Shown: positions 13,694 through 59,812, counted from the first letter of the stretch. The stretch is DNA of 64,000 nt from a virus (IMGVR_UViG_3300028833_000110:1-64000), one strand, 5' to 3'. Numbers and translations: made by a program. The notes: generated by a model not told the origin, from the sequence alone.

Positions 13694-13737
13694 ATCCGCA
13701 GTGTAATCGAATACTACCTCCCAAAAAGGCTGCGGAT
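13694..13737 (-). ncRNA. Three-way-junction motif A, copy 1
   Basis: AUCCGCAG-CCU..AGG-UAGUAUUCGAUUACA-CUGCGGAU. Confidence 0.6.
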
Positions 13738-13913
13738 TACAAAATAATATTAAAAGATATGAATTAATTGAATGAAGTTCCCTAAGATACCGAGGTTGTT
13801 AAATATATTAGTGATTGAGTGGGTGTAATATAACTGAAACTCTGTATTAATTTTTACCCACGACATCTTAGCTTTATCTATATATTATTTTGTGGTTGTG
13901 GTTTTTACTGTTG

Positions 13914-13964
13914 AACTTGGGGTGTAATCGAATACTACAACCTTTATTTTTGTTGCCCCAAGTT
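13914..13964 (-). ncRNA. Three-way-junction motif A, copy 2
   Basis: AACUUGGGG-CAAC..GUUG-UAGUAUUCGAUUACA-CCCCAAGUU. Confidence 0.6.
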
Positions 13965-13986
13965 AGTTATTAGAAAGGAGATTTTT

Positions 13987-14538
13987 TTAATATTTTCCAC
14001 TATTTGCTGCGTTTGTTATTTTAGTATTGAGGGCTTTGGCATTCTTTCCATTACCGAAGAGTGCGCTATTCATTGCTTTCGCCTCCTTACTTTGCTGTCC
14101 AAGAAGCTGACTCCTCCAACCTGATTTAGCAGTCATTAGTGTTTTAAAGTCGTTAGAACCAAGCTTACCTCCTTTAGGGGCCGTCTTTTGAATACCTTGA
14201 ACTAATAAATTTGCATCCTTCATTACTTCTTTGCCTTCCCCCTTTAGTGAACTAATAAGACTAGTATTGCCACCTAAGTTAGTCACTCTTTTAGCCATTT
14301 CAGGACCCTGCATATATTGTCCAGCCTTTCTTAATTGGCGAGCAGTTTTTGCAGCTTTATTTCTAACAAACTGATTCCTTAGTGATCCTAGACTGGGAAA
14401 AGCAAATTCTCTCTGGGCATATTCGTATCCTTCACAAAATGCACGTTCCAAGAGTTCATCCAAGTCTTCATTTCCCGTACTATAAAGCTTCTCATCATAG
14501 TACTCATCATAATCACTGTACAATTTAGTTATTTTCAT
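13987..14538 (-). CDS. Acidic-leader/cationic-core protein (LYSTGNxxLDELLERAFCEGYEYAQREF family)
   Basis: About 45-aa conserved leader followed by a unique basic core. Confidence 0.7.
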   Translation of the reverse strand: MKITKLYSDYDEYYDEKLYSTGNEDLDELLERAFCEGYEYAQREFAFPSLGSLRNQFVRNKAAKTARQLRKAGQYMQGPEMAKRVTNLGGNTSLISSLKGEGKEVMKDANLLVQGIQKTAPKGGKLGSNDFKTLMTAKSGWRSQLLGQQSKEAKAMNSALFGNGKNAKALNTKITNAANSGKY

Positions 14539-14550
14539 TATTTATCATTC

Positions 14551-14595
14551 AACATACAGGGAAAATTTAACTTACTACCCCCCCCCCTGTATGTT
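14551..14595 (-). repeat. 5'-leader hairpin element C with poly-G tract
   Basis: aacatacaggg...ccctgtatgtt, 12 nt upstream of the ATG; near-identical copies at 53017 and 57355. Confidence 0.65.
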
Positions 14596-14632
14596 ATTTT
14601 TTTTTATAAAGGGAGAGATAATATTGTTTTAG

Positions 14633-14678
14633 ATCTAGGAATCCACATTGAAGGGTAGACCTAAAGTCATTCCTAGAT
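14633..14678 (-). repeat. Structured intergenic motif B, copy 1 (copy 2 at 15181..15233)
   Basis: atctaggaat...attcctagat stem enclosing conserved atccacat..aagggtagacc.aaagtc. Confidence 0.55.
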
Positions 14679-14684
14679 ATTAGT

Positions 14685-15095
14685 TTAATTATTGCTATTA
14701 TTCTTTTTATTCTTTTTGTGTTTTTTAATAGCAGCCGTAGTACCAACAGCAGCAGCAACAGGGAGAGCAATCATAGCACCTTTACCAGCCATATTGATTC
14801 TTTTGGCTCTTTTGGCATTTTTCTCAACGAGTTCCCTTATCTTATCCAGGTTTTCATATTTTTCGGGATTTTTAGTGACATCCTTCATTGTTCTCTTTAT
14901 GGTTCTTGCACCAACTCGTTCTATGTCACCTAAGGTTTCTCCTCTAAACCAATCTCCAATCTTACCAAACTCTCTTTGTGCATATTCATATCCATCACAA
15001 AAAGCTCTTTCCATCAATTCATCTAATTCATCATTACCAGTACTATATAATCTCTCTTCTTCCTGATAATTACTGTACAATCTTTCTATTTTCAT
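14685..15095 (-). CDS. Acidic-leader/cationic-core protein
   Basis: MKIERLYSNYQEEERLYSTGNDELDELMERAFCDGYEYAQREF leader; C-terminal hydrophobic helix and Lys tail. Confidence 0.7.
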   Translation of the reverse strand: MKIERLYSNYQEEERLYSTGNDELDELMERAFCDGYEYAQREFGKIGDWFRGETLGDIERVGARTIKRTMKDVTKNPEKYENLDKIRELVEKNAKRAKRINMAGKGAMIALPVAAAVGTTAAIKKHKKNKKNNSNN

Positions 15096-15155: not shown

Positions 15156-15239
15156 TCTGTTTTTATAAAGGAGGAATAGTATCTAAGAACCAGAAATCCA
15201 CATCAAAGGGTAGACCCAAAGTCATTCCTAGATATTTTT

Positions 15240-19116: not shown

Positions 19117-19805
19117 ATGTTATTTTTTATTATCATATCTTAGGACAATAATACAGAGTCCGGTTAATAAAAAATGTAAAGATCAATAAAATCTCTTTAC
19201 ATATATAAGGGTTTGATTAAAAATATGGCTAAAATAGTGGTCGGAAGTGATTTGTTATTTTAAAAATCTATAAAAATTTCAAAAAATACCCCAAAAATTA
19301 ACAAAATAAGTGGTCGTAAAAAATTGAGGGTCTGGAATGGGAGTGGAATGGGAATAATAAAATTGCTCTAAGATAAAGTTTAGCGAAGCGATCTAAACTT
19401 AAAAAATAAGAGCTAATAAAGGAGTGAGAGAAGGCCTTCCCGGGGCCACAATTCTAACGAATTGAACCCCTTCTCTCACTCTCTTTCTATCTTCTCCTAA
19501 AAAATCCTAAACCTCGAGTGTCTCTCGGTTCTTAACGGATTTTTCTTAACGGAGAAGGAAAGAAAGGATTTTAGAATGAGACCCCTATTTGATTTATTGG
19601 AAAAAAGAAAAGTACTATTTTTTATTCATGAATTAAGTTAGGAATTACATAATAGATGACGTAGATATTTCGAGGATTAAATTAGTATTTCACACTAAAA
19701 TTCCCTCATAATCCTAATAAATGAAAGTAATAATTATCCATTCCAGACCACTCCAAAACAGGTCTGGAATGGGAATAAAATAAGTAAACAAAAAAAATAA
19801 AAGAT
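19117..19805. other. Divergent intergenic region with repeats and hairpins; candidate replication origin
   Basis: About 690 bp non-coding at the strand switch; GGTCTGGAATGG direct and inverted copies; several hairpins. Confidence 0.45.
19200..19210 (-). promoter_or_regulatory. Promoter core CCTTATATATG driving the head operon
   Basis: Same motif recurs about 14 times upstream of genes and tRNAs, in the coding orientation. Confidence 0.55.
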
Positions 19806-21890
19806 ATGAATGATAGTAATTTAAATGAAACGGATAATAAAATGAATGTTATCCCAATTAATGTTCCTAAGGAGATTGAATATATAAGTGAATGGAAAGA
19901 ATTTAATTATCCTTTGGGACATCTTATTTTAGATAAAACTATTTGTGGATGTGGTTTTACTGAATACTGTTTAAATAATGATTACCCAACTATTTTATGT
20001 TCTCCTAGAAAAAAACTTCTTGAAAATAAAGAGGAACAACATAATAGTGAGGAGGGTAAAAAGAAGGGATTAAAGTGGATTTATTATTTTAGAAATGACT
20101 ATGAAAATAATATTGATTTTGATAAAGAAGTAGAAATCAATACTCCTTTCGGTAAATCTTCCTCTAACTTTCTATCTTCTATTCAAACCCAAGAGAATGT
20201 AGGAGATATAGAAAAGAGTGAAAGAGAAAAATACCTAAGTAAAATAAAAGATAATTTAAGAGAATATATATTATTCTGTAAAAATAATAATCAACCATTT
20301 AAAATTATTGTTACTTATGATTCTCTCTATCATGTTCTTAGTGTATTATCTCCTTTTTATTCCTCTAATGAATTTTATTGTGTTATTGATGAATTTCAGA
20401 GTATTTTTATTGACTCCTCATTCAAGGCTACAGTAGAATTAGATTTTGTAGAAGATCTAAAATTATGTGAGAATGTATTATATCTTTCTGCTACACCAAT
20501 GTTAGAGAAATATTTAGTACAATTAGAATATTTTAAAGATCTTCCAATGTACAAACTAATGTGGGATGATAGTAGAATAGAAAGAGTTAGAGCAGAGTTT
20601 AGAGTAGTTAGAAGTATAAATAATGAAGTAAAAGAATTAGTAGAAGATTATAGAAACGGAAAAGGAAGAGAAAAAGTATTATCAGATGGTACAGTAAAAT
20701 ATTCAAAGGAGTTAGTTATTTTTGTCAATTCAATTAAATCCATTTGTGATATAATAAAGAAATGCAATCTCACTCCGGAAGAAACTAATATTGTCTGTGC
20801 TGATACGTCTAGAAATATTAAAGCTCTAAAAAAAGTTAGACAACAAATCGGAAAAATACCTACTCAAAATCAGACTCACAAGATGTTTACTCTTTGCACT
20901 AGAACTACTTATCTAGGTGCAGACTTTTACTCTACAAATGCTTTCACTGTAGTTTGTTCTGACTGTAATATTCAAACAATGACAGTAGATATTTCATTAG
21001 ACCTACCACAAATTCTCGGAAGGCAAAGATTAAAAGAGAATGTATTTAGGAATGAGGTATTAATATTATACAAAGCTGAGACAAAGAAAATGGCAGTTAT
21101 TAATGAGAGTAAACTAGCCAATGATAATAAAGTAAGGGAAAAAGAAGCAAAAACATTAGAATTACTTAAGGGATATGCTAAGATGTCTGATAAAGAAAAA
21201 GAGTTGTGGGCAGAGATATGTAAAAGAGATCGTGAATTGTATCAGAATAATTATCTCGGTGTTTCTTCAAGGACAGGAAAAGCTACTTTTAATTATCTTG
21301 TTAAAATAGCTGATCAAAGAGCTTATGATGTTAGTAGAAGGGAATATATAGATGAAATAACAATTAAAAGGGGTATAGAGAGTATAGATAATGTGAATAT
21401 AGAAGTAAGAAGTGATAATGTAGAGAATGTAATCAAAAATTTTAAATCAGAATTTAATAGTGATAATAATTTTGAAAGAAGAATGAAAATGTTATGTGAT
21501 TGCTATTTTGAGTGTCCGGAATTTTTCATTGACTATACTAAGATTCTCCAAACGATTATACCATTAGATTATCAAAATTACATTAATACTCTTGGTTTTG
21601 AAAAGATTAAAGCATTGGGTTATAGGGAAGCCGATATAATCAAACAAATCAAAACAATATCTTATCTTAATAATATTTCACCAACATCTCTTTTTTCTAT
21701 TGGATCTAAATATTCTACAAAACAAATAAAAGAGATGTTAAGAAAATTTTATGAAGAAAATAATATAATAAAAACTCCTAAAGCATCCGATCTTGAGGAA
21801 TATTTTAATCTTCGTCCTTGTCAATTCATAGACAAAGAATTAGGAAAGAAGGTTAATGGGTTTCTAATTTTAAGTAAAAAAGGAGATTGA
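19806..21890 (+). CDS. Divergent SF2 helicase-like protein (possible origin-binding protein)
   Basis: Degenerate Walker A (KTICGCGFT), SPR, TYDS, DEFQ (motif II), SAT (motif III), GADF, QILGRQR (motif VI). Confidence 0.7.
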   Translation: MNDSNLNETDNKMNVIPINVPKEIEYISEWKEFNYPLGHLILDKTICGCGFTEYCLNNDYPTILCSPRKKLLENKEEQHNSEEGKKKGLKWIYYFRNDYENNIDFDKEVEINTPFGKSSSNFLSSIQTQENVGDIEKSEREKYLSKIKDNLREYILFCKNNNQPFKIIVTYDSLYHVLSVLSPFYSSNEFYCVIDEFQSIFIDSSFKATVELDFVEDLKLCENVLYLSATPMLEKYLVQLEYFKDLPMYKLMWDDSRIERVRAEFRVVRSINNEVKELVEDYRNGKGREKVLSDGTVKYSKELVIFVNSIKSICDIIKKCNLTPEETNIVCADTSRNIKALKKVRQQIGKIPTQNQTHKMFTLCTRTTYLGADFYSTNAFTVVCSDCNIQTMTVDISLDLPQILGRQRLKENVFRNEVLILYKAETKKMAVINESKLANDNKVREKEAKTLELLKGYAKMSDKEKELWAEICKRDRELYQNNYLGVSSRTGKATFNYLVKIADQRAYDVSRREYIDEITIKRGIESIDNVNIEVRSDNVENVIKNFKSEFNSDNNFERRMKMLCDCYFECPEFFIDYTKILQTIIPLDYQNYINTLGFEKIKALGYREADIIKQIKTISYLNNISPTSLFSIGSKYSTKQIKEMLRKFYEENNIIKTPKASDLEEYFNLRPCQFIDKELGKKVNGFLILSKKGD

Positions 21891-21956
21891 TTATGATTTA
21901 TGTGATGGGTCGATTTTAAAAGTAAAACCCTTATAAATAAATGAAGTTAATTTAAT

Positions 21957-22307
21957 ATGAATAAACAACAAAATATTAATTTTACTATGGACAAAAAAAT
22001 AATATCAAAGATTGACGAAACAAAATCCGTCGAGATTGCGCAAGAAATTATTTCAAGAGTTGAAAACACTAAACTTGAAGACATCGCAACAGTACTCAAT
22101 GGCATTACAATAGCTCTTGTATCCATTTGTTCTGATGTGAAAAAATATGTTGATGGAGATAAGACAGAAGAGCTTATTATGACCTGGTTTGCGGCATGTG
22201 ATGGATTAAAGAAAACCAACTTCTCAAAATTCATCAAATTACCAGAAGAGAAACAACACTCTGGCGATATCCGCGATGAAACAGATGTAATGCCGACCAG
22301 AGAATAA
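21957..22307 (+). CDS. Hypothetical protein
   Basis: ORF track; follows the promoter motif at 21929. Confidence 0.5.
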   Translation: MNKQQNINFTMDKKIISKIDETKSVEIAQEIISRVENTKLEDIATVLNGITIALVSICSDVKKYVDGDKTEELIMTWFAACDGLKKTNFSKFIKLPEEKQHSGDIRDETDVMPTRE

Positions 22308-22704
22308 CAAAATTGAGGATTAAAATAAAAAAATTATGGATGCCAACGAATTGAGAGAAAGATGGGCAGAGTTTTATGACGACAAGTTCCCAAATAATAA
22401 TGTAGTAGATTTCAATGAGGAGACTGGAGAATATTATCTTCTTACAGTAGAAGAAAGAAAAGAGAGATTGCTTATGAACTCCCAAAGGTACAAAAATCTC
22501 TAAAACAAAGAAACTTTGGAATATGGACATTAGAGATCTTACTACTCTAGCGATGTTAGGAGGTGACAGTAATTATTTTATGCCACAACGTAATTCTAGC
22601 GAAACGATTGCCTATGATCCTGTAAAACTCACCGGTTTCACCCAAGTCAAGGGGCGTAGGCGGTTGAGCAAGAAAAAACGTAAACAACTAAAAACCAAAA
22701 AGCA

Positions 22705-22935
22705 ATGAGTAAATACAGAATCAGCCCCGTATTCGGCATACTTACAGACCCAGAAGAAATTGCCAAATTTGACCGCCAACAAGCGGAAGAAGACATGGAA
22801 AGGGCTTATATGGAAGCCCAACAGCAAGCAGAATATGAAGCAGAAATGCGAGCCTATGAAGAAGCATATCATCAAGCAGAATATGAATATTACTGGATGC
22901 TTTTCATGCAAGAGAACGAAATGATAACCGATTAA
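22705..22935 (+). CDS. Small acidic hypothetical protein
   Basis: ORF track; internal QAEYE repeat. Confidence 0.5.
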   Translation: MSKYRISPVFGILTDPEEIAKFDRQQAEEDMERAYMEAQQQAEYEAEMRAYEEAYHQAEYEYYWMLFMQENEMITD

Positions 22936-23124
22936 AACCAAAAAGCAATGACAGAACTTGAAAGAGAAGAATTAATTGCTAAAGTCGGCAAAGAAATCTA
23001 TGATAAAATATATTATGAAGGTTTTAATGCTGGATATAAAAAGGGGTATGATGATGGTTATTATATAGGCGAAGATATGGGCGAAGACTTATAAAACAAA
23101 AAAAAACAACTAAATAACAAGATA

Positions 23125-23541
23125 ATGACAATAACAGATAAAGAACTTTTATTGAAAGCCATAGAGCAGAAGCGGCAAGAAGTTCGGCTGACTGACACAG
23201 GCGAAATGAAACCAGCAACTGTTCCAAATAATCTGGAATTAGGTTGGTTAAATGCATTGGCGTGGATGAAGAAATACATCGACTCCCTCCCTGCCGAAGA
23301 AGAGCAGTCGAGCAATGACTCTAAGGACCCAAGGAATGACTCTTACCATTCCGAAACTCTCTATACATACGAACAAATAAATATCCTTGCTAATAACCGT
23401 GCACAATGGCAGAAAGAGCAGACTATCAACAAAGCTTGCGAGTGGCTCCAGCATAACGCGGAAAAATATGACGCTAGCTACAGCTTCCCTGACTGTCCTC
23501 TATTAAAGGACTTTAAACACGCAATGGAGGAGGAACATTAA
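23125..23541 (+). CDS. Hypothetical protein, family WQKExxINKACxWL...DFKxAMEE
   Basis: C-terminal module shared with 24273 and 27777. Confidence 0.6.
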   Translation: MTITDKELLLKAIEQKRQEVRLTDTGEMKPATVPNNLELGWLNALAWMKKYIDSLPAEEEQSSNDSKDPRNDSYHSETLYTYEQINILANNRAQWQKEQTINKACEWLQHNAEKYDASYSFPDCPLLKDFKHAMEEEH

Positions 23542-24038
23542 TGGGATTAGTTGATTTTATTATAAATGCAGGTGAAGCATGGTCTGGACCCTACAGGAAT
23601 TTTTCTTGTAGAAGTAGAACACTAGATGGGTTCAAACGATGTTATGACTATGTATCTGGAAATACCCATTACTACGATAATGGATATGATTATAAAAGTA
23701 TACAGATAAAAACAGTCTCCCCACTACAGGCGACAGATAAAACCATAACGAAAGTATATGAAACAGAATACATTCGTTATTATAAGAAGAGAATGAGGAG
23801 ACTGAAAATTTGGGAGAGTATAACATCTTTTGTTTCTATAATAGGGACACTAGGAATTGTACCTTCCATACTATACGTGTTAATATCTTTTAATACAGCA
23901 TCTTTCATTGTATTCGGTGTAGTGCTAAGTGCGACTATAATATCGCTTATAGTCTGGAAAGATTTAACAAACAAAATATTTATAGAGTCTGATTCAGTTC
24001 TTGACGCTTGGTTAAGGCAGCATCAAGATTTTAAATAA
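23541..24038 (+). CDS. Membrane protein with two TM helices
   Basis: Two hydrophobic stretches near the C-terminus. Confidence 0.55.
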   Translation: MGLVDFIINAGEAWSGPYRNFSCRSRTLDGFKRCYDYVSGNTHYYDNGYDYKSIQIKTVSPLQATDKTITKVYETEYIRYYKKRMRRLKIWESITSFVSIIGTLGIVPSILYVLISFNTASFIVFGVVLSATIISLIVWKDLTNKIFIESDSVLDAWLRQHQDFK

Positions 24039-24272
24039 TAAGTTCTATGAGTAGGAAAAATGCTAAACTGGCAAGAATCACAGACCTACAATGTCATCAA
24101 CCTGACATAATATTAACAAAAAAAGCTTGTGATACGATTGCCGAAGCCTTATGGACATTACATAAAGACAACCCTAAAGAAATACTAGACTTATATTGGT
24201 ATTTTAGAGACCTTAGTAAGATAAGAAAAGGTAAGTCTGTAGGTAGAGAATTAAGACTTTATTATAAACACA

Positions 24273-24680
24273 ATGACAAATAATGAAAAAATAAAGGCCG
24301 AGATTGAACGGCTAAAAGAAATTGGATGTCCACTACAAAAAGGTAGTGATTACCAACATGGGTATGATGAATTTTATACCCAAATAAAAAAATTCATTAA
24401 CACCCTCGCCGCTGAATATCAGAGTGAGGAATTTAAAGAAGAATTTGATAACTTTTTAGTCCACGGAAATATAAGAAACCCGAATTTTGAAGGGCCATTC
24501 GGATATGATGACATAAGAAAGACAGCCATGCACTTTGCCAACTGGAAGAAAGAACAAATTATCAACAAAGCCTCTAAATGGCTTGCGGGTAATATTATCC
24601 ACTATATTTGGAGTAGTAAAAGGGAGATCGGCATAAGTGATGACTTTTTTATTGATTTTGAAAAAGCAATGGAGGAATAA
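24273..24680 (+). CDS. Hypothetical protein, WKKEQIINKASKWL family
   Basis: Paralogous module. Confidence 0.6.
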   Translation: MTNNEKIKAEIERLKEIGCPLQKGSDYQHGYDEFYTQIKKFINTLAAEYQSEEFKEEFDNFLVHGNIRNPNFEGPFGYDDIRKTAMHFANWKKEQIINKASKWLAGNIIHYIWSSKREIGISDDFFIDFEKAMEE

Positions 24681-25244
24681 AAATGAGTAATAAGATGAAA
24701 AAGTGGATTGATAGAATGATATGGAAGTCCCATTGTCTGTTATTCGGGCATAAATGGGCAAATGATAATTTGGGCGATAAAGACGGATGGGTACCGCAGA
24801 GTTGTGAATGCGGCGCAAAGCGAATCTATAACACAATAACAAAGGAAGAAAAGAAATGACTTGGGCCCTTGGATATTTGATATCCTATTAGACGAAAGGG
24901 GATGAATAATGGCACGGTATCAAATCGAATATAATGGAAACTTTTACAGGGCAATTCCATTTGTTCAAGCACAAGAAGGATTGCAGTGTAACCGTTGCGA
25001 CATAAAGGATTTCGGAATCTGTGATGCAGCTTGGTGTAGCAGTGAAGACAGAAGTGACCATCAAAACGTTGTGTTTAAATTAATCAAGGAGAATAACAAT
25101 GAAAATACAAAGAATTAACGAAGGATTTACTTTCCTTCCAAGCATTAGTTTGAATTGGTGTACTTGGAAAGGAAAAAGATATTATTACCTTAGTTTTGCG
25201 TGGCTGTTTTGGATCACAGACACATTAAAAAAATTTCCGTGGGA

Positions 25245-25637
25245 ATGACACAAGAAAAGAAACAGTTATTACTTAAAGATCTCTGTTCTAGATTACCGTA
25301 TGGAGTTATCATTAACACTCCCTCAAATATTTTTGATCCAGATAGTAGGGAAGATGTTAAATTAGATAGTATTTTTGAAATTGATGGTAATTTTTATATT
25401 ACAGAAGAAGGTGGGTGGCCAATAGAAGAGTGTAAGCCATATCTCCGCCCAATGTCAAGTATGACGAAGATTGAAAAAGAGATTTACAAATCACTTAAAG
25501 AAGATATAGATGAAGATTATAGTGAAATTACACAACTTCCTTTAATTGATTGGCTCAATAAAAGTATGTTTGATTATCGCGGCTTAATTCCTAGAGGTTT
25601 CGCATTAGAAGCCATTAAAGGTATGTATAATATTTAA
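25245..25637 (+). CDS. Hypothetical protein, LLLKDLCSRLPYG...PYLRP...FDYRGLI family
   Basis: Start at ATG 25245 from N-terminal identity with 26193; four paralogs in the window. Confidence 0.65.
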   Translation: MTQEKKQLLLKDLCSRLPYGVIINTPSNIFDPDSREDVKLDSIFEIDGNFYITEEGGWPIEECKPYLRPMSSMTKIEKEIYKSLKEDIDEDYSEITQLPLIDWLNKSMFDYRGLIPRGFALEAIKGMYNI

Positions 25638-25639
25638 AT

Positions 25640-26191
25640 ATGAAAAAATTGCTTATTATTGCTGATTATAATGACGCAGATTATGTAAAAGATGTTGTCA
25701 AGGTTGAAGATTCTGTCTTTGAGAAGTTTCTTCCGTTTATGAAGGCAATCAATAATTTTGAACCTTATGTTCGCCGTAGTAGTTTTGGCGGTATTTGTGA
25801 ACATAATTGGATTAGTCCGAGAGAAGACCTTGGTGAGAAAAACATCTATGAAACTTATCCTCAGTTTACTCACGATTATATTGACGAGTTTATAGATATC
25901 TTTACGAGTGGCTTGAATGTTCCTTATGATGATGGTCATTGTCATACAATTATTGAAATAAGTGATGTGGTTACTGATGAAAAATATGTTGACTGGAATC
26001 AAGGATGGGAAGCTTGTAAGGAGAGATATAGTCCTAAAGTAAAGGAATATCTTAAGAAAATAGAAGAGCTTTATTCTTATAAACGACCTTCTGATGGAAA
26101 ACCTTTAAATTGCATTCCCTTTGCAGAAATGAATGATTATGAGAGTGAACTTATGAATAAGTTAGGTACGCTTTGGAAAGATTATCAATAA
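25640..26191 (+). CDS. Hypothetical protein
   Basis: ORF track. Confidence 0.55.
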   Translation: MKKLLIIADYNDADYVKDVVKVEDSVFEKFLPFMKAINNFEPYVRRSSFGGICEHNWISPREDLGEKNIYETYPQFTHDYIDEFIDIFTSGLNVPYDDGHCHTIIEISDVVTDEKYVDWNQGWEACKERYSPKVKEYLKKIEELYSYKRPSDGKPLNCIPFAEMNDYESELMNKLGTLWKDYQ

Positions 26192-26192
26192 T

Positions 26193-26624
26193 ATGACACA
26201 AGAAAAGAAACAGTTATTACTTAAAGATCTCTGTTCTAGATTGCCTTATGGAGTTGTTGGTTTATACACTTGGAAGTGTAAAGAATCTTACAATAGGGAA
26301 TTAACAGGAAGTTTATATGATGAATTAGAGCTTTCTTGGAGTAATACCGATGATAGTCAATTCTTACCATATCTTCGTCCGTTATCTTCAATGACAGAGA
26401 ATGAGTTTCAAAACCTTAAAAGATACAGTGGTCTGATATATTACCAATTAGAATTACAAGAATTTTATGACAATTCTAAATGTTTGGAGTTTTATCTGTC
26501 GGAAATACCTTCATATGTTGTAATTTTAGTTTTTGATTGGCTTAATAAATATCACTTCGACTATCGGGGTTTGATTCCTATGGGTCTTGCACTTGAAGCC
26601 ACTAAAGATATGTATAATAGCTAA
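26193..26624 (+). CDS. Hypothetical protein, PYLRP family
   Basis: Paralog of 25245, 33337 and 33869. Confidence 0.65.
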   Translation: MTQEKKQLLLKDLCSRLPYGVVGLYTWKCKESYNRELTGSLYDELELSWSNTDDSQFLPYLRPLSSMTENEFQNLKRYSGLIYYQLELQEFYDNSKCLEFYLSEIPSYVVILVFDWLNKYHFDYRGLIPMGLALEATKDMYNS

Positions 26625-26724
26625 TTTAAGTATGTTGACGTTATGCTGTATCATTTACTTACTGGTGCAGCCTTCAAAACATAAAAAAGATACTCGAAGT
26701 ACAATTTGATAATTATTAAAATAT

Positions 26725-27717
26725 TTGATTATGGAAAATTATGAACAAAAGTACAAAGAAGCTTTAGAAAAAGCAAAAATGGAGTTAAAAACTTGTGACT
26801 CTTTGGATTTGTGTGCTACAAGACAATTGATATTAAAACTCTTTCCTGATCTTAAGAAAAGTGAAGACGAACTTATAAGAGAAGAAATCCTTAATTGTTT
26901 TGTTGAGATGAAAAAACAAGGTTGCTTTCCATCAAAACATGAAGCACAATACGATTCTTGGGTTTCTTGGCTTGAAAAGCAAGGCAAGAAAGAACTTGTG
27001 AACTTCGATGAAGCAGAGAAAGAAAAACGAGAATTTGTAGGTGATGGGTTTATTGAATGTCATGCAGACTTTCTTGATTTCAAAGAAGGGCATACTTATT
27101 GGTTTGAATATATTGGTGATGATAATTATAATGTAAGAAGCGATAATCTTCTTGGGAAAACATATCATATAACACCATGCCAACTTTATACAATTTTTAA
27201 GAAACTAACTTGGCTTGAAAAACAAAGTGTACCAGCTTCCAGTTACGACATTCCAAAACACAAATTTAATGTTGGAGATTGGATTGTAAATAAGAAAGGT
27301 GTAATTGGAAACATAAACGAAATAAAGATTGATGGTCATGGAATGCTCAGATATTGTATTAATTGGGTAGATGGCAATCAGTCAATTCCTATCCCTTGTT
27401 TTGTTGATGATGACTACCACCTTTGGACAATTAAAGATGTAAAGAAAGGTGATATACTACAAGCTAATAAATGTATATTGATTTTTGATTCTTTGACTAA
27501 AGACCTAGATGTAGATGGTAACACAGTAATAAGTAGTTGGTATTTTTGTGATAGCGAAAAGTTCTATGGAATGGGTATATCCAAACCAGATTTATGGAGT
27601 ATCGAAGGAGTTACCCCAGCCACTAAGGAACAGCGAGACTTCTTATTTCAAAAAATGTATGAAGCAGGGTATAAATGGGATAGTAATAAATTGGAATTGC
27701 AAGATATCCGATATTAG
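26725..27717 (+). CDS. Modular hypothetical protein
   Basis: TYWFEY...RSDN.LGK module shared with 48819..49256; FNVGDW SH3-like start. Confidence 0.55.
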   Translation: MIMENYEQKYKEALEKAKMELKTCDSLDLCATRQLILKLFPDLKKSEDELIREEILNCFVEMKKQGCFPSKHEAQYDSWVSWLEKQGKKELVNFDEAEKEKREFVGDGFIECHADFLDFKEGHTYWFEYIGDDNYNVRSDNLLGKTYHITPCQLYTIFKKLTWLEKQSVPASSYDIPKHKFNVGDWIVNKKGVIGNINEIKIDGHGMLRYCINWVDGNQSIPIPCFVDDDYHLWTIKDVKKGDILQANKCILIFDSLTKDLDVDGNTVISSWYFCDSEKFYGMGISKPDLWSIEGVTPATKEQRDFLFQKMYEAGYKWDSNKLELQDIRY

Positions 27718-27776
27718 TTTGTGCAAGCTTTTAGAATTATTATCAAATAGAAATAAATTAAAAAAAACATAATTAT

Positions 27777-28154
27777 TTGGAAATAATGACGGATCAAGAA
27801 ATAATTTATAAAGCTATCAGAGAAGTGGTAAACACGGATAAACCAAGTGAATTTGCTGCTCACAATAGTACCGCATACACTATAGCAAAATATGTATGTG
27901 AAGCGGTTAGAGAACAACTTGGTAATAAGCCTACTGAGGAATTAGATGTAGAAATTAATCTAGAATACAAAAGCAACTATAAACTAAGAGAACTATCACC
28001 TGAAGAATTTAGGGAAATAGTTCATCACTTCACACAGTGGCAGAAAGATAATACCATTAATAAGGCCTGTCAATGGATACAACAAAACGCTGAAAAATAC
28101 ACTACAGCCTATGATCATCTTTCGCAGGACTTTAAAAAAGCAATGGAGGAATAA
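27777..28154 (+). CDS. Hypothetical protein, WQKDNTINKACQW family
   Basis: Paralogous module. Confidence 0.55.
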   Translation: MEIMTDQEIIYKAIREVVNTDKPSEFAAHNSTAYTIAKYVCEAVREQLGNKPTEELDVEINLEYKSNYKLRELSPEEFREIVHHFTQWQKDNTINKACQWIQQNAEKYTTAYDHLSQDFKKAMEE

Positions 28155-28799: not shown

Positions 28800-28932
28800 A
28801 TCTGCTGCCAATAATCTTATGGATTGTGATGATTCCAATGAATGAAAAATTTATGGGCAATTCATCGCTAATTCCGTTAAGAGTTCGTGGTAGTAGAAAA
28901 AAAAATTAAAACTTGATAATTGAAGGATAATC

Positions 28933-52996: not shown

Positions 52997-53016
52997 ATTT
53001 ATTTTATTATACGTTT

Positions 53017-53059
53017 AACATACAGGGAAAGTTTACTTACTATCCCCCTCCTGTATGTT
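53017..53059 (-). repeat. 5'-leader hairpin element C
   Basis: Copy of 14551..14595, upstream of the LRR gene. Confidence 0.6.
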
Positions 53060-53174
53060 ATTTTTTTTAATGGGAGATAGATTTTTATTTATGCGTGGTG
53101 AGACTTGGTGCAAAAATTCTAGTCTTGGGTTATGGTTCTAAGACTAAAACTCCTGCACCAAATATTCCCCGCGC

Positions 53175-55368
53175 TTAGAACAGATTATTTAACATGCCCT
53201 GGAATATTTTTTGGGTTTCTTCTAGGGCGGATGATGTTTGAGAGGAGAATGATTGAATAGTTTTGCTTACTCCACCATTCATTCCTAGTTCTTGATATTT
53301 AGAATAGTGATAGTAGCAATTGAAGAGAGCACCAGAAACAGCATCAGCAAGGTCTTTACTCCCCTCTAGCTTATTCCCTTCCATTCCCGCATGATCAAAC
53401 TCATAACAACTTGAAACTAAGGGGTGATCTATTTTACAATGCTCTCCGTTAACTCCATTATAAGTCACTAATAGCTCACTACATTCTCGTAAAAGTATGT
53501 TGATATAAGGAAGCTCTAATCTTTCTGAATTTACTATATTCTTAAAGACGTTATAAGCCTCCATAGTTTTATCTACGGAAAGGGGTCTGTAGGGAATTCC
53601 ATCTCTTTCAGCATTTTGTAAGATTCCGGCACTAGCAAAAGAGTCAGCACTAAACTCGACGATATATCCATTTTTCACTAAGTCTTGTAAAAATTGATAG
53701 AGGTGGTCTAGTGATGTAGCCTGTCCCTTCTTTCTGGAAACAACAAATGCTAATGGAACTTTGAATTTGGGAAGTGTATATTCTCCTACTTGTTTTTCCC
53801 CATCATAATAACATAAAGCTATCCCAGTTTTATCCTTCTTCAATCCTATATCATAATGTACATATAGTGAAGTGCCTCGTGGAATTCTGTAGATCATATT
53901 TTCGACATGAGAATATATACTATCTTCCTTATCATAAAAATCGACTATAATTTCCTCGGGACTGTAATTCTTTAGGGTTGAGCAGTTTATGAGATGAGAT
54001 ATATTACCGTTGAAGAATCTCTCATCGCCGCTATAAGATACTCCCGCTAAGTCTCTAAGATTTCGGATTGGGTCGGCCAGGAATTTAAATTTGGCAGAGA
54101 TGGGAACATTAATCACTCTGTCAGGATCTAATCCAGATTTCTCCAGATCTTCGGAGTCTTCGATCACGCGGGGACCTGTAATATTATCTCCTTTATAGAA
54201 CCTAAAAGTCTTACCATTAGACTCAAGGTATAGTGGATCATAACGTATATCCCATTGTGCAAATCTACAGCGGTATAATTCCTCTGGGGGAACGAGAGAT
54301 TCAAACTTAGTAACAGCAATATTATCCGGGTCCCTCGCTGAGCTGTCACAAACTACATGTCCATAAACAAATCTTTTATCAGCAAAACGAGAATCATAAC
54401 GAGTCACAACTTCTGAAGCTCGAGCAGCCCCCTCCGAGGACCTCCAGAAGCCCAGCTCTGATAAACAGGCATATATCAAATTTCTTATTTTATAATAATT
54501 TTTTATTATATTAGACTATATCTTGTATTAAAACAGTATATACATAGTCTTTGAACTACTTTAAATTAAAGTAGCTGCTGATTTAATATATTAATTATTT
54601 CCAGCAATTCTTATACTATGAGCAAACTTTTTACTCCGATGACATGACTCCCGCTAGAAGGACCCGAGGGGATAAAACGAATGGGTGGTTTATGATAAGG
54701 ACTTCTAAAATAAGGACTTGTATCAAACACTAAGTCAACATAATTTTTGAAGTCTCTTTTGGCAGTCTCGAAAGAATTGTGAAAGAAAGCCATTCCTAGT
54801 TTACTGTTCGCAATCCCAAGAGACTTAAATACATTTGTACAGCAATCCAATCTATGGTAAGTATAGAGTGCTAGGATCTTACTGATAGTTGATTTTCCAA
54901 GTCCACAGTTTTATAATATTTCTATTATGATAAGACTATATCTTCTTTCGTATATACACATAGTCGTTGAATAAGATACATAATTATCTTACTGCTAGTT
55001 TAAATCGGAATTTGTTTCTAGCAATTCTTATATAGGCCGCTGGACTTTCTGTTAACGGCACCCCCAAGAGAAATCCAGGGGTATTTTGTAGTAATTGAAT
55101 TTGGATAAATCTTTTCTAATTCAGCATACCATGGATCAAATAATGCTTTTCCATGATTAAATAAGTTATCATCTCCCATAAAATAATCATCACATATAAA
55201 TCTTCTTATAGTCACTGGTTTATGATCCATCCCCAGTAATTTACACGCTGCTAATATTTTCTCCTCATTAGAAAGTTTATTATATTCAGATTCAAGTATG
55301 TTTTGGTTTATATCTGATGAAATAGAAAGAGTAGGATCATCACCTATATTTATATTACTGTTTTTCAT
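53175..55368 (-). CDS. terL: Terminase large subunit, three exons (55368-55055, 54905-54633, 54483-53175; 631 aa spliced)
   Basis: Splicing restores Walker A GGAVGLGKST and Walker B-like LIYACLSE; nuclease motifs HYDIGLKKDKTG and SKDLADA. Confidence 0.85.
54484..54632 (-). mobile_element. Miniature group I intron 2 (149 nt)
   Basis: Exon GAGU pairs with IGS GCUC; P10 AAGUUU/AAAUUU; P AAUUGCUGGAAA, Q AAUCAGCAG, R UUCAAAGACUA, S AAGAUAUAGUC; terminal G. Confidence 0.88.
54906..55054 (-). mobile_element. Miniature group I intron 1 (149 nt)
   Basis: Exon GCCGU pairs with IGS GCGGC; P10 AAGUCCA/UGGACUU; P AAUUGCUAGAAA, Q AACUAGCAG, R UUCAACGACUA, S AAGAUAUAGUC; P9 GAAA loop; terminal G. Confidence 0.9.
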
Positions 55369-56662
55369 ATTCTTCTACTTTTTTAGGTTCTATTATGGGA
55401 ATGATGGAGCTAATGTCTTCCCCATATATCAATATCTTTTGTATTATGTCGAAAATATCATTAAATTCTTTTATATTGTATGGTATAACGATTAATTTTA
55501 TCGATTTCCTCTCACAATACTCTTTTATAGCATCGTCTCGTAATAATTGTTTAGAATAGTCTTCAATAGACCTTTGAAAGTCGTGATCCCAGAAATAATG
55601 TTGAGATCCATTATATTCAATTATATAAGTAGATCCTTTATAGTTTTCTAAGTAAAAATCAACATAAACCCTTTTTTGAACATTAACTAATTCAAACATT
55701 TCCTCACTATCAATCCGAAACTGAGGTGTATATTCAATTCCTAAATTATCTAATACATGAGCTACATGTTTCTCTCCTCTAGACTTAACTCGATCGAAGT
55801 TAAATATGCCTCGTAATAAATTTCCTGCTGGTACAGAGTATTCCTTACCTGTTCTACGATCTATTACTATTACATTAGTATCTCTTCCAACACGACTATT
55901 GGATCTTAAATAAACCGCCTTTGATAAATCTATTATATCTCCGTAAATTTCCCTAACCCTTTCTTCAAACTCTTCTTGCGATATAGCATTCTGTCTTCCT
56001 ACGGATAATCTAGCACAATTTGGGCATTGTCCAGTTCCATAATAATGCTCTCCGGGCATCTGTTCAAAAAACTCTCCACAAGTAAGACACTGAAGACGTA
56101 CTTTAGTATGATTATTAACATACTTTGTTTCACTATATCCAAATCTACCTGGAAACTTCTCCTTTGATCTTCTTATGAATTCTTCAGTGTCTACATATTG
56201 TTCTGTTTTTTCTTTAGATAACATTCCCGCACATTGCCTGTTTTCATCTAATACTACTACAAGATCATGATAACTTGTTTCCCACTCTCCTATTACTTTA
56301 TTTGTTTTAGTAGATACCTCATCTACATAAATAGGTACATTAGTCTTTTTGTTTCTTATAATATCTGGAACATTACTGAAGTCATAATTAAAAATTCTTT
56401 TATTCTCAATTTCCCTAGAGTTATAATATCCTTCTATAAAATCCTCTTTCAGGATTATACCTTTTCCAATAGACCATCTTAATCCATCTTCTTTTATGTG
56501 TTTGAGAACAAATTGTTTAGTATGTCTGTGTTTATCAGTGGCATTAGAAAACCACCTTAATCTCTTCTCTACTCTCTCCACACTAACTCCTAATTCTTTA
56601 GCTACACCTTCGACCGTGTACTTTTCTTCAAATGGAAATTCTTCTCTTTTACCGTTTTGCAT
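55355..56662 (-). CDS. Free-standing homing endonuclease-like protein, paralog of 12355..13662
   Basis: FIRRSKEKF..RFGYS..KY...CLTC...CPNC; SRGE...DFYL...IEYNGSQHY...RD. Confidence 0.75.
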   Translation of the reverse strand: MQNGKREEFPFEEKYTVEGVAKELGVSVERVEKRLRWFSNATDKHRHTKQFVLKHIKEDGLRWSIGKGIILKEDFIEGYYNSREIENKRIFNYDFSNVPDIIRNKKTNVPIYVDEVSTKTNKVIGEWETSYHDLVVVLDENRQCAGMLSKEKTEQYVDTEEFIRRSKEKFPGRFGYSETKYVNNHTKVRLQCLTCGEFFEQMPGEHYYGTGQCPNCARLSVGRQNAISQEEFEERVREIYGDIIDLSKAVYLRSNSRVGRDTNVIVIDRRTGKEYSVPAGNLLRGIFNFDRVKSRGEKHVAHVLDNLGIEYTPQFRIDSEEMFELVNVQKRVYVDFYLENYKGSTYIIEYNGSQHYFWDHDFQRSIEDYSKQLLRDDAIKEYCERKSIKLIVIPYNIKEFNDIFDIIQKILIYGEDISSIIPIIEPKKVEEYEKQ

Positions 56663-56828
56663 AATCTTACTTTAACTGCTTCCCGAGATATGTTATTATT
56701 CTTATCTTATTCATTTTATTTCTAGCATGTTTAAAAATGTGAGGAGTACTTAAGGTAGCTATTCTTGTTCCTCCTCACCCTTAAGATTATGCTAGAACGG
56801 GTTTTATCTCTTCGTCAGTTTTCCTTAG

Positions 56829-56879
56829 ATCTCGCAGTGTAATCGAATACTACATCCCCTACCTATGATGCTGCGAGAT
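56829..56879 (-). ncRNA. Three-way-junction motif A, copy 3
   Basis: AUCUCGCAG-CAUC..GAUG-UAGUAUUCGAUUACA-CUGCGAGAU. Confidence 0.6.
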
Positions 56880-56898
56880 TATAACCGCGCATATTCTT

Positions 56899-57342
56899 TT
56901 ACGCTTTTATTCCTTTCTTGATTAGACTTTTTGGATTAAGCTTTTTTTTCAATTTCCATTTTCTATCTTCATTCAATAGTCTTAAACCGTTATAATCATT
57001 AGAACTCTTTAGTTTATTGTACCTAGCATCATAATTATAAGTGTTTTTTTTCACGTAATCTTTATCAAATCTTTCCTGTCTTACTCCTCTTTCTGGTGTA
57101 AACTCTATATCTCCACGATCTCGTGATCTAGCATTATGTATAGCAAGATCTTGCATATTACGCAAATCACCTCTTTTCGTCTTATTATCAATAGGCTCTC
57201 TTAGTTTATCTAAAAAACTTGAATCCACCGGCATACCCGCATTTTCGTGTTCTTTTATATCATCCTCTATAAATTCTTTAAGGTAATCTATGTTTTTCTT
57301 ACCCTTCTTACGAGCAAATTCTTTTTGTCTTAGTATTATCAT
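56899..57342 (-). CDS. Leader-bearing basic protein
   Basis: MIILRQKEFA; preceded by hairpin element C (57355..57398). Confidence 0.6.
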   Translation of the reverse strand: MIILRQKEFARKKGKKNIDYLKEFIEDDIKEHENAGMPVDSSFLDKLREPIDNKTKRGDLRNMQDLAIHNARSRDRGDIEFTPERGVRQERFDKDYVKKNTYNYDARYNKLKSSNDYNGLRLLNEDRKWKLKKKLNPKSLIKKGIKA

Positions 57343-57512
57343 TATTTATCATTCAACATACAGGGAAAATTTAACTTACTACCCCCCCCCTATATGTTAT
57401 TTTTTTTACAAATGGAAGGTAGTTGATTTATTATTTATTATTAATCCCACAACAAACTAGGGATGAAAATTAAGTGATAATCATTTCAATATTACTTTCT
57501 ACTCTGATTATT

Positions 57513-58010
57513 TCATAGCCTCTCAATTTCTTTACATATTTTTTTAGCTAAGTCTCTTTGGTTTCCAGGTTCAAAATCTTCTGGGGAAAAATATCCCTTC
57601 ATTATTTCTTTAGGGTCTACTTTTTCAAACTTCTTTATAAATAATCCCTTCTTCACATACCACTCTTTTCCTGATACATCACACCATAATTTAGCGGCGA
57701 TCTCAGAATATCCAAATTCCTCTGCTGTATCTAAGTTATCATAGAAAAGGCACACATATTCTTTCCCATCCTTTTCTTCTGTATATGGTCCCTCAGGAAA
57801 CTTTTCTGGTTCGAATACAATGGCAGCATGTATTAATTCTTCTTCTTCCGTAAGTTCTGAAAATTCTTTGATAAGGGGATTAATTTTATCTAGGAACTCA
57901 ACATAAAGGGAAGGGTAATTCAAGGCTTTAAGTTTTTTTATCTCATCATTCCCAACTACAATTCCAGTATGATGTCTCCAAGCAAACTCTTTTTGTCGTA
58001 GTATCTTCAT
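57513..58010 (-). CDS. Leader-bearing protein, possible SMI1/KNR4-like domain
   Basis: MKILRQKEFA; LNYPSLYVEFL. Confidence 0.5.
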   Translation of the reverse strand: MKILRQKEFAWRHHTGIVVGNDEIKKLKALNYPSLYVEFLDKINPLIKEFSELTEEEELIHAAIVFEPEKFPEGPYTEEKDGKEYVCLFYDNLDTAEEFGYSEIAAKLWCDVSGKEWYVKKGLFIKKFEKVDPKEIMKGYFSPEDFEPGNQRDLAKKICKEIERL

Positions 58011-58315
58011 AGCTTTAATTTTTTAGTTTGTCTCTTTATCATCTCTTCTTCCTGCCGGTTGAAGGTGTCTGTATTCGCTAGTCTTTGTTCTGGAGTTAGT
58101 TTTTCTGTATTCTTTCCTGCCCCTAATATATTAACTCTTGCCTTTCCCACATTTTTAGCTCTTCTCGCCTGTCTTCTTCTTTTTCTTTCTATCTTTCCCT
58201 CAAGAGCATCAGTAACCCTAGCTCGTTCAAGATCGCTTAATTCACTTCCCTTTTTATGAATAAACCTGGAAATAGCTTCATGATAAGAGTAATTATTTTG
58301 TCTCAGTATTTTCAT
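58007..58315 (-). CDS. Leader-bearing Arg-rich protein
   Basis: MKILRQNNYS. Confidence 0.6.
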   Translation of the reverse strand: MKILRQNNYSYHEAISRFIHKKGSELSDLERARVTDALEGKIERKRRRQARRAKNVGKARVNILGAGKNTEKLTPEQRLANTDTFNRQEEEMIKRQTKKLKL

Positions 58316-58742
58316 TATCTCTACTCCTTCTTTTTTTCTTAGTTATTTTATCGTAAGCTATTCCTCCAGCTGTGGCTCCAATAACAGTAGCTGGTAAAAT
58401 AAACTTTGATCTATGTTTAAGAACTGCGTTTTTTCCAGCCTCTTTACTTTTACTTATTGCCTCTTTTTCATACATTTTTTTCAGTTGTTCTACTTGAGAA
58501 ATTGAATCTTTATCTGTTAACTCTTGTGCCAACCCTATATTTTTTTTTATTCGTTCTAGTCTATCGTTTAAATCTTTATTGTAGTTCTTATTAAATACTT
58601 CATCTTTTCCTTTCTCAGATAAAGCATAACCACCAACAGCACCAATTCCAGCACCGACAGCCGAAGAACTAGCTATTCCAATTTTATTAGCTAGACCCTT
58701 CTTTTCTTTTTTCTGCTCTTGTTCTTTTCTCTTTATTTTCAT
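58293..58742 (-). CDS. Glycine-zipper protein
   Basis: MKIKRK; AVGAGIGAVGG and VIGATAGG. Confidence 0.6.
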   Translation of the reverse strand: MKIKRKEQEQKKEKKGLANKIGIASSSAVGAGIGAVGGYALSEKGKDEVFNKNYNKDLNDRLERIKKNIGLAQELTDKDSISQVEQLKKMYEKEAISKSKEAGKNAVLKHRSKFILPATVIGATAGGIAYDKITKKKRRSRDNENTETK

Positions 58743-59056
58743 TTTTTTAATATTAATCTGTCTCCTGTAATTCCTTTGTAGTCCTTTGGTATATTTTCTT
58801 CTCCACCAAAAATAGAATAAGCATTAGTTCCTTTACTAATCTTTTCTCCTCCCCCATGATCTCCAAGTGTTAAACCTGGAAAATCTGGATCTATACCCTC
58901 CGAACTATCTAAGAATTCATCATGTATCTTTTTAAGCTGATTTAAAGTACTAAGTGTATATCCTTCTATATTATCAGCTTTTACGAACTTATTTAAATAA
59001 AATTTTAGATCCATCAATTGGGCAATTGTTATAGAGGTCTCGAAAAAAGTCGACAA
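58739..59056 (-). CDS. Possible baseplate hub assembly partner (T4 gp51-like position)
   Basis: Directly follows the gp26-like gene; positional inference. Confidence 0.35.
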   Translation of the reverse strand: MSTFFETSITIAQLMDLKFYLNKFVKADNIEGYTLSTLNQLKKIHDEFLDSSEGIDPDFPGLTLGDHGGGEKISKGTNAYSIFGGEENIPKDYKGITGDRLILKK

Positions 59057-59738
59057 TGAGATTTTCTACACTCACTGCCACTAACCCCCTTTCTCCCTTC
59101 TCTATACATCCTGGACAAGTTAATTCAAGGGGTTCTAGTCTATCATAGTAAATATCACGAAGAGCCATAAGAAGGGTTATATCTTCGTGAACAGCCCCTA
59201 ATACATCCTGCTCAATCTGGTTTCCATCAAGATCAAAATTCTTCATCAATGCTATAGTTTTGATCATTTTAAGGTCTGTAATTTTTCTATATTTTAAGTA
59301 TTTTTCAAAGACCTTAAGAAAATCAGAAACCGTAGGAATAGTGACATCATATTTATGCCCCGACAACTCTATAACAGCCCCATTCATTATTTTATCATCA
59401 ATTTGCTTAAAATGTATGTCGGTTTCTAGATTAATTTTCTTTCTTATCTTAGTACCACATTCAGGACAAGTTATGGAAAGATCATAAGTTAGGTCCCCGG
59501 AAACAGTACAAAGCTTCTTATAAAAAATTAAGAAGTCAACATCCATTACATAACAGTTAAGAACATTTTTATCTTCCTTAATTAATAATTTTATATCAAA
59601 TAAGTATTTTTCTAGGGGATCTTTGGGTACATTCTCTAGGTATTGTGTTAGCTCTAAAAACGTCATAGGGCTAACAGATAAAGAGGGAAAATCATAACCA
59701 TATCCCCCACTAGGTAATTGCGAAGTTAATACTATCAT
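58989..59738 (-). CDS. Baseplate hub assembly protein (T4 gp26-like)
   Basis: LPSGG..Y...PMT..E...D.DFL...CPECG...PTV.D...CPGC pattern. Confidence 0.6.
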   Translation of the reverse strand: MIVLTSQLPSGGYGYDFPSLSVSPMTFLELTQYLENVPKDPLEKYLFDIKLLIKEDKNVLNCYVMDVDFLIFYKKLCTVSGDLTYDLSITCPECGTKIRKKINLETDIHFKQIDDKIMNGAVIELSGHKYDVTIPTVSDFLKVFEKYLKYRKITDLKMIKTIALMKNFDLDGNQIEQDVLGAVHEDITLLMALRDIYYDRLEPLELTCPGCIEKGERGLVAVSVENLIVDFFRDLYNNCPIDGSKILFK

Positions 59739-59767
59739 ATTTTTATTCCATTTTTAAGTTATATTAG

Positions 59768-59812
59768 TTCCCAGAGTGTAATTGAATACTACCTCAGTTT
59801 AGGCTCTGGGAA
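59768..59812 (-). ncRNA. Three-way-junction motif A, copy 4
   Basis: UUCCCAGAG-CCU..AGG-UAGUAUUCAAUUACA-CUCUGGGAA. Confidence 0.6.

Follow-up and report, generated by a model that had tools for sequence, protein, structure and literature searches.

A widespread, uncatalogued three-way-junction RNA between genes of uncultured phages, with a possible tRNA-mimic role

What is the short structured motif that recurs between late genes of the uncultured T4-like rumen phage IMGVR_UViG_3300028833_000110, and what might it do there? We analysed positions 1-64000 of this virus record, a stretch of 64,000 nucleotides (nt) that we call the window. A first-pass annotation of the window had described four copies of a three-way-junction motif with a common core, together with a degenerate fifth. 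Searching the whole 64-kb window with the plus-strand 15-mer of the core, TGTAATYGAATACTA, returned exact matches at 13702, 13923, 56838 and 59777, which confirmed the four copies and their shared core; the coordinates first given for them were correct to within 1-2 nt. Nine other matches all need three mismatches and stand at chance level (13 found vs 9.1 expected). Beyond the window, position 67153 of the same 95.8-kb virus record has a fifth exact copy. The window itself holds four canonical copies, one divergent intact copy and two decayed ones (table 1). The analysis below establishes the motif as a real, evolutionarily maintained folded RNA of 40-50 bases, selected on the transcribed strand, and as a member of a widespread, uncatalogued RNA family of unrelated uncultured phages. 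For its function we tentatively favour mimicry of tRNA.

All genes neighbouring the copies lie on the minus strand, so the RNA sense is the reverse complement of the window. Read on this mRNA strand, the element consists of the 5' arm of an outer helix (P1), a variable hairpin (P2), the core UAGUAUUCRAUUACA, the 3' arm of P1 and an unpaired tail. Within the core, U-R is followed by a 3-bp helix (P3) capped by the hexaloop UUCRAU, then by an A, after which the P1 3' arm begins. Together these parts form a three-way junction, 37-51 nt long across the family, in which P1 can have any sequence and spans 5-10 base pairs (bp; mode 7 in the broad family, 8-9 bp in the canonical copies of the window). 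The minimum-free-energy (MFE) fold of copy 3 is a three-way junction. The outer stems had been said to pair over 8-9 bp in every copy; they do, with arms flush with the core, and the inner hairpin (3-4 bp in each copy) covaries as proposed. The tail after P1 is unpaired and usually reads C-U-A/C-A, with CUAA typical of the window copies. This conserved tail is an addition to the first-pass annotation, as are the divergent copy at 14633-14678 and its decayed sibling at about 15181-15233.

We built a covariance model (R1) from a seed alignment of nine sequences (A4), then a second model (R2). In the seed, 98.6% of cells are paired and 10 of the 16 pairs change on both sides, a level reached by none of 500 shuffles. 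R1 found diverged copies in related virus records and R2 found further ones. The final alignment (A7, 44 distinct sequences) has 97.6% of its 625 cells paired vs 68.4% in shuffles, bearing in mind that it is model-fitted, which favours the structure. Double changes occur in 14 of the 16 pairs, and all three helices covary, P1 at 9/9 pairs. G.U pairs outnumber A.C pairs 47 to 7, model scores reach 57-66 bits on the sense strand vs 10-18 on the antisense strand, and every copy is co-oriented with its flanking open reading frames (ORFs). These three observations indicate that selection acts on the transcript.

The pairs of P3 are G3-C14, U4-A13 and A5-U12, around the hexaloop. P3 was seen as 18 different complementary triplets, among them the compensatory variants GAA/UUC, AGA/UCU, GCA/UGC, ACA/UGU and GCG/CGC, plus CCC/GUG in the divergent copy of the window. 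MFE folding prefers another register for the core, with a 6-bp stem and an AUUCG loop; compensatory P3 changes in L156, L159, L166 and G007 fit only the 3-bp/6-nt register and refute it. When P3 and P1 were left unconstrained in a pattern search, P3 was fully complementary, and P1 flush and no shorter than 5 bp, in 30 of 34 distinct matches. The hexaloop is UUCAAU in 26 copies and UUCGAU in 24. Also invariant are the C-G pair that opens P2, the G at the 3' end of the P2 loop (including in copies where nothing pairs with it), the U-R junction before P3 and one or two A after it. The base after P1 is C in 35/50 copies and the next base is U in 35/50. We inspected the sequences for partners of the P3 loop in the P2 loop (GAA/UUC), in the tail and in the linker, and no such pairing was consistent across copies.

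The less regular copies of the window fit the same scheme to different degrees. The divergent copy scores only 10 bits with R1 and has the same architecture and a UUCAAU loop, two of its three P3 pairs being swapped compensatorily. In its decayed sibling UUCAAU has become UUUGAU and the 3' arm of P1 is disrupted. The copy at 13819-13861, described at first as degenerate, does retain a stem and the AUUACA remnant; it is better called decayed, as the UUCRAU loop is gone and it gives no significant covariance-model score.

Taken together, covariance-model and pattern searches yielded about 50 distinct copies, spread over about 45 contigs of viral or metagenome origin. Searching viral contigs with the bare 15-mer was of little use: nearly all matches lacked the flanking stem and were due to chance, so longer or structured patterns were needed. 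The subfamily of the window is marked by a variable P2 and an 8-9 bp P1; its members were found in close relatives and in rumen-type metagenome contigs (G001, G003, G005, G006, Ga0247611, Ga0326512 and AUXO01); G002 carries two diverged copies. Five copies lie within 1.5 kb in G007, which encodes an integrase and therefore represents a temperate phage unrelated to the T4-like one studied here. A pattern derived from the P2 sequence of G007, CGGTTNAGCCGTNNNNTTCRAT, matches 35 stretches of IMG/VR, whose GC content ranges from 22 to 61% and which have Shine-Dalgarno sequences in some cases and lack them in others.

The first-pass annotation had not recognized the motif as a named family, and this judgement stands even at permissive thresholds. 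Nothing in Rfam 15 overlaps any copy, either in the window at gathering score or in four window and genome loci at E<=10, and there was no match in seven broad-family loci (E<=1) or in fifteen more loci (gathering score). The single match among 185,579 prokaryote genomes, in a Colwellia metagenome-assembled genome, lacks the stem and is due to chance. Among cultured phages nothing resembled the window region, the G007 array or the element on its own, and the searchable literature contained no description of it. Whatever its mechanism, the element constitutes a well-supported family of about 50 members with strong covariation that is absent from Rfam.

The copies had been reported to lie between late genes, close to stop codons, without a U-tract and ahead of both endonuclease genes of the region, all of which holds. 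Window copies begin 11-22 nt past a stop codon, and three of them follow members of one paralogous gene family, here called the leader family. Copy 2 begins 22 nt past the stop of the leader-family gene 13987-14538, copy 3 lies 19 nt past that of 56899-57342, and the divergent copy follows the leader-family gene 14685-15095. Copy 4 is separated by 13 nt from the stop of the preceding gene, 59826-60434, and by 29 nt from the ATG of the next one, the baseplate gene 58989-59738; it is kept at the equivalent site in L070, L148 and L170. Copy 1 lies about 112 nt upstream of an endonuclease gene start (13581).

The broad family is placed in the same way: in 19 of 30 copies a same-strand stop codon lies 4-11 nt upstream, and in 23 of 29 the next ATG follows at 3-40 nt, 15-40 nt being typical. 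G007 and L224 carry 5-7 copies, one in each successive junction of an array of small genes. Each junction of these arrays reads stop codon, 5-10 nt, motif, a conserved A/C-rich linker of 20 nt and ATG. L224:3061-5416 and L136:5984-7439 are arrays of 5-7 small genes (58-116 amino acids) with one motif copy between each, and share the linker CUCAUYAAAACCUCAAAAACAUG. With only about 20 nt from the motif to the next ATG, such junctions have no room for a promoter. A tRNA gene near the motif was found only in G007-type arrays.

No copy is followed by a U-tract; the tails are CUAA and A-rich sequence. A terminator scan called none of the copies, yet it called true terminators such as 6437-6474, and ordinary hairpin-plus-U terminators are present elsewhere in the late region of the phage. 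The element is therefore not an intrinsic (Rho-independent) terminator, having no GC hairpin with U-tract, in line with the earlier statement that it is not a simple terminator.

What, then, could a folded RNA do in this position? The UUCRA of the hexaloop corresponds in sequence to the T-loop pentad of tRNA (U54-U55-C56-R57-A58), is present in 50 of 50 copies and alternates between G and A at the R57 position. Related phages use the T-loop UUCGAUU in their own tRNAs. Counted from the loop to where P1 ends, the 3' strand measures 12 nt in 22 copies, 13 in 18, 11 in nine and 10 in one. P1 and junction lengths combine as 7+2 (18 copies), 9+1 (15 copies) or 6+2 (eight copies), with 6+3, 5+3 and 9+0 in single copies, and this trade-off suggests that a distance is being measured. 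A 3' strand of 12 nt would match the 5+7 layers of the T-stem plus acceptor stem of tRNA. P1 itself resembles an acceptor stem in being a covarying helix of 5-10 bp, closed at one end and followed by an unpaired 3' tail. We compared this tail with 13 phage tRNA genes (window 29278-37287 and L184-L188 of relatives): in all 13, N73-C74 continues with A or U and never becomes CCA, five having C-UAA, so that the motif tail resembles the trailers of phage tRNAs. A pair between the invariant U ahead of P3 and the final junction A is feasible and, with a G.A layer formed by the G that follows this U, might complete a five-layer analogue of the T-stem; these U-A and G.A layers show no covariation.

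Three options had been offered at the outset: a tRNA-mimic processing site, a protein-binding element or a ribozyme. That the motif is a cis-acting RNA is borne out. Among the three we favour the tRNA mimic, on the grounds that its UUCRA is T-loop-like, that loop and tail are 12 nt apart and that its trailer resembles those of tRNAs, and we infer, tentatively, that the element is a mimic of the tRNA top half that could serve as an intercistronic processing signal for host RNase P and RNase Z (or a similar 3' endonuclease). P3, extended by the U-A and G.A layers, would stack on P1 and so imitate the 12-bp acceptor/T-arm top half, with P2 replacing the rest of the tRNA. Polycistronic phage transcripts would be cleaved on the 5' side by host RNase P, at the foot of P1, and on the 3' side by RNase Z or a comparable nuclease, past P1 and at or beside the conserved C. 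The outcome would be single-gene mRNAs with defined ends, comparable to tRNA punctuation in mitochondria and to plant t-elements. Hammerhead ribozymes flanking single prophage genes (PMC3088659) offer another precedent for such punctuation.

The acceptor/T-arm half is the part of tRNA that RNase P, RNase Z and the CCA-adding enzyme recognize, and the mascRNA of MALAT1 illustrates that such tRNA mimics can define mRNA 3' ends. The element resembles an acceptor/T-arm minihelix, a substrate of these enzymes, in its proposed helix of roughly 12 layers, its UUCRA loop and its single-stranded tail; it differs from the minihelix and from mascRNA by the extra P2 hairpin on the 5' strand, the shortened T-loop and a CUAA tail in place of NCCA. 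The t-elements, which RNase P and RNase Z cut to form the ends of plant-mitochondrial mRNAs (Forner et al. 2007, PMC1920247), are, like the proposed mimic, tRNA-like without an anticodon, lie at gene boundaries in mRNA precursors and combine an acceptor-like stem with a T-loop arm. They have a GGTTCRANYCC T-arm with a 5-bp stem and a 7-nt loop, often with more of the cloverleaf retained, whereas the phage element has three Watson-Crick pairs, a 6-nt loop and one or two unpaired bases before P1, belongs to phages rather than organelles, and has a processing role that is only proposed.

Several features weigh against a tRNA mimic. The Rfam tRNA model does not score the element. Its T-arm analogue has three Watson-Crick pairs and six loop nucleotides (tRNA has 5 and 7), lacks the G53-C61 pair and is usually closed by A-U. 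One or two unpaired bases part P3 from P1, and P2 abuts P1 without a spacer, so junction rules alone favour stacking of P1 on P2 over stacking on P3. The P1 of window copies has 8-10 bp rather than the 7 of tRNA, and the tail is not CCA and varies across the broad family. The invariance of the loop is in part an ascertainment effect, since two search patterns demanded it; the copies found by the models and the divergent copy found by hand also keep it. Cleavage at the 5' foot would deprive the upstream mRNA of a protective structure at its 3' end. Finally, the proposed function is read from shape and position.

If the tRNA-mimic proposal is true, many phages split multi-gene messages without encoding a nuclease or a ribozyme, placing 40-nt tRNA look-alikes between genes to borrow the universal tRNA-trimming enzymes of the host. 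This would add a layer to phage expression control, a bacterial-virus counterpart of mitochondrial tRNA punctuation, and would explain the accessory-gene arrays as easily shuffled units of a gene plus a structured joint. It would also provide a compact, host-general RNA processing tag for synthetic operons.

An unlikely alternative, though the leading one, is that the RNA stays uncut and acts as a protective or insulating structure or as a protein-binding site, its T-loop docking on the conserved G of the P2 loop. Possible actions would be to halt 3'-to-5' exonucleases where the upstream cistron ends, to uncouple the translation of adjacent genes, or to bind a protein of the phage or its host. 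Placement right after stop codons would suit such a role. In G004, a related phage with terminal repeats and no motif, the corresponding slots (downstream of the leader gene, ahead of the baseplate gene) contain a simple GC-rich hairpin and then UAAAC. The P2-loop G is invariant even when unpaired, and equal lengths of P2 and P3 suit a loop-loop contact. A generic stabilizer, however, needs no invariant hexaloop in unrelated phages of different hosts, and the P1/junction trade-off suggests a measured distance. No conserved candidate for a binding protein was found, the flanking proteins being unrelated between lineages.

A reading that we consider improbable makes the element a new class of small ribozyme that cleaves itself, or a ribozyme-like RNA without protein recruitment, and has it punctuate phage polycistronic mRNAs. 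Such a class would be widespread in uncultured phages and would have been overlooked because its stems vary freely. The genomic slot is that of hammerhead ribozymes, which flank single genes in prophage arrays and were proposed to cut long transcripts gene by gene (Perreault et al. 2011, PMC3088659); here, too, a short structured RNA is repeated between small co-directional phage genes. Its size (37-51 nt), a three-way junction with variable stems, about 12 invariant nucleotides (about 22 in the broad subfamily, including CGGUUNAGCCG) and the absence of an Rfam match would all suit a ribozyme. Unlike hammerheads, the element has no CUGANGA...GAAA core and matches no Rfam ribozyme; cleavage, if it occurs, would be by host enzymes. 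The conserved bases lie mostly in hairpin loops and not in the junction, P2 is free in sequence in the window's subfamily, and Rfam scans of family loci found no known ribozyme in the same arrays that would hint at interchangeability. Mimicry of tRNA explains the T-loop and the 12-nt ruler more simply.

The copies also take part in recombination. G005 has an 830-bp gene cassette that the window lacks, and a 33-bp repeat made up of the P1 3' arm and the core bounds it. G002 and L166 carry different genes between two copies at the same locus. The copy at L224:3304-3344 is a hybrid: its P1 arms do not match and the gene downstream has been exchanged. The hybrid and the repeat-bounded cassette indicate that crossovers occur inside the conserved core, much as in promoter-early stem-loops (PeSLs; PMC4122927), the sequence-conserved elements of T4-type phages that combine a terminator hairpin with a sigma-70-like early promoter (Arbiol 2010, PMC2839356; Comeau 2014, PMC4122927). 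Copies thus act as crossover points for the gain and loss of cassettes, as a side effect of being a conserved repeat, and homing-endonuclease genes have settled just downstream of them. Could shuffling be their primary purpose, with the RNA fold secondary? PeSLs are likewise repeated intergenic stem-loops at indel boundaries of T4-like genomes that mediate cassette gain and loss. We nevertheless regard a primarily recombinational role as hardly likely. Recombination depends on identical sequence, but all three helices have diverged and kept their pairing, which means that selection acts on the fold, and the G.U pairs and strict co-orientation point to RNA. Unlike PeSLs, the element has covarying stems, a T-loop arm and no promoter half, lies in structural-gene regions and also occurs in non-T4 phages. 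Although indel boundaries coincide with copies, no -35/-10 pair follows the element. As a general late promoter, the CTAANTAAA tail was rejected because it is not enriched in the window (7 found vs 10.8 expected), and a promoter-like box of the phage, TTCCTTATAtatG, is not attached to the element. Readings as an integron attC site or a miniature inverted-repeat transposable element were also rejected, as the conserved part is here internal and the arms variable, which is the reverse of those elements.

The least probable explanation, a factor-dependent or unconventional terminator or a recognition site of the neighbouring homing endonucleases, draws on the location at gene ends, sometimes just upstream of the promoter-like box CCTTTATAAAAA, and on the two endonuclease genes of one family that lie downstream of copies in the window, one of them inserted about 22 nt past copy 3, but it has against it the missing U-tract, the next ATG that leaves a promoter no space in arrays, the lack of an endonuclease near most family members and the intact state of the element beside the endonuclease gene, so that on present evidence it is not a target destroyed by insertion.

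Table 1. Positions and parts of the motif copies and of the two endonuclease-like genes in the window.
Feature	Position	Strand	P1	P2	Core	Tail	Model score (bits)	Remarks
Canonical copy 1	13690..13737	-	13730-13737/13694-13701 (8 bp)	13717-13729	UAGUAUUCGAUUACA, 13702-13716	CUAA, 13690-13693	62.8	
Canonical copy 2	13910..13964	-	13956-13964/13914-13922 (9 bp)	13938-13955	13923-13937	CAAC, 13910-13913	60.6	
Canonical copy 3	56825..56879	-	9 bp	56853-56870	56838-56852	CUAA, 56825-56828	64.2	
Canonical copy 4	59764..59812	-	9 bp	59792-59803	UAGUAUUCAAUUACA, 59777-59791	CUAA, 59764-59767	63.4	
Divergent intact copy	14629..14678 (motif proper 14633-14678)	-	10 bp	GAC[UUUAG]GUC	UACCCUUCAAUGUGG	CUAA		After P2: UA; P3 CCC[UUCAAU]GUG; G
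Decayed copy	13819..13861	-	6-bp stem GUGGGU/ACCCAC		AUUACA remnant kept; UUCRAU loop lost			
Decayed sibling of divergent copy	~15181..15233 (approximate)	-						Upstream of 15095
Homing-endonuclease-like gene	12355..13581	-						PHROG 559/9084, E 2e-49
Paralogous homing-endonuclease-like gene	55355..56662	-						PHROG 559/9084; between copy 3 and terminase start

The two endonuclease-like proteins (408/435 amino acids) are 27% identical to each other. The true start of the first gene is the ATG at 13581 (MSLLTERLL), fixed by the orthologue in G002; copy 1 and a hairpin with five U after it both lie upstream of this start. The mechanical ORF start, a GTG at 13662 (12355-13662), falls inside a hairpin. 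L168 represents an endonuclease-less allele of the second locus, in which the terminase start follows the homologue of copy 3 after about 70 nt, and from this allele we place the insertion of the endonuclease cassette. By a rough estimate, taking about 4 of 100 intergenic regions to carry the motif, the chance that both endonuclease genes follow a copy is ~0.002. Reading the sequence, we saw no complementarity between motif loops and the endonuclease start region. Both genes are also preceded by a second conserved hairpin and then by UUUUUAAA (13625-13665 and 56740-56790, minus strand). The stems of this hairpin covary between relatives and bury GGAGG-like runs, and the loop of the first one contains GUAUAAUAUUGCGCAACUUAAAAA. 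It may be a translational control element or a terminator of the endonuclease cassette.

The leader family encodes paralogous small proteins on the minus strand (13987-14538, 14685-15095, 56899-57342, 59826-60434 and, in genome coordinates, 67198-67662). Four of the five members share near-identical N-terminal 45 residues (MKIERLYSNYQEEERLYSTGNDELDELLERAFCDGYEYAQREF), of which 56899-57342 retains only the start and Q.EF. The remainder of each protein is variable, lysine-rich and of low complexity, and each gene is followed by a motif copy. By sequence, these proteins resemble capsid-targeted internal proteins. The box CCTTTATAAAAA is conserved upstream of leader-family genes (14539-14640, 57343-57512, 60435-60522 and 52997-53174, minus strand). 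Next comes a hairpin or pseudoknot containing 8-10 consecutive G (ACAUACAGGGGGGGGGGUAGUAAG...CCCUGUAUGU), which ends about 12 nt before the ATG.

The gene content of the phage is largely without known families. Ten larger plus-strand proteins of early type (19806-35784), which we searched as possible RNA enzymes, matched no Pfam family at E<=0.001. A further box, TTCCTTATA(t/a)(a/t)tG, is present in 22 of 131 upstream regions, usually 8-35 nt ahead of the start codon, in window region 19210-37335 (mostly plus strand) and genome region 69168-94443. It looks like a Bacteroidetes-type -7 promoter and, together with the absence of Shine-Dalgarno sequences, suggests that the host of the phage belongs to the Bacteroidota.

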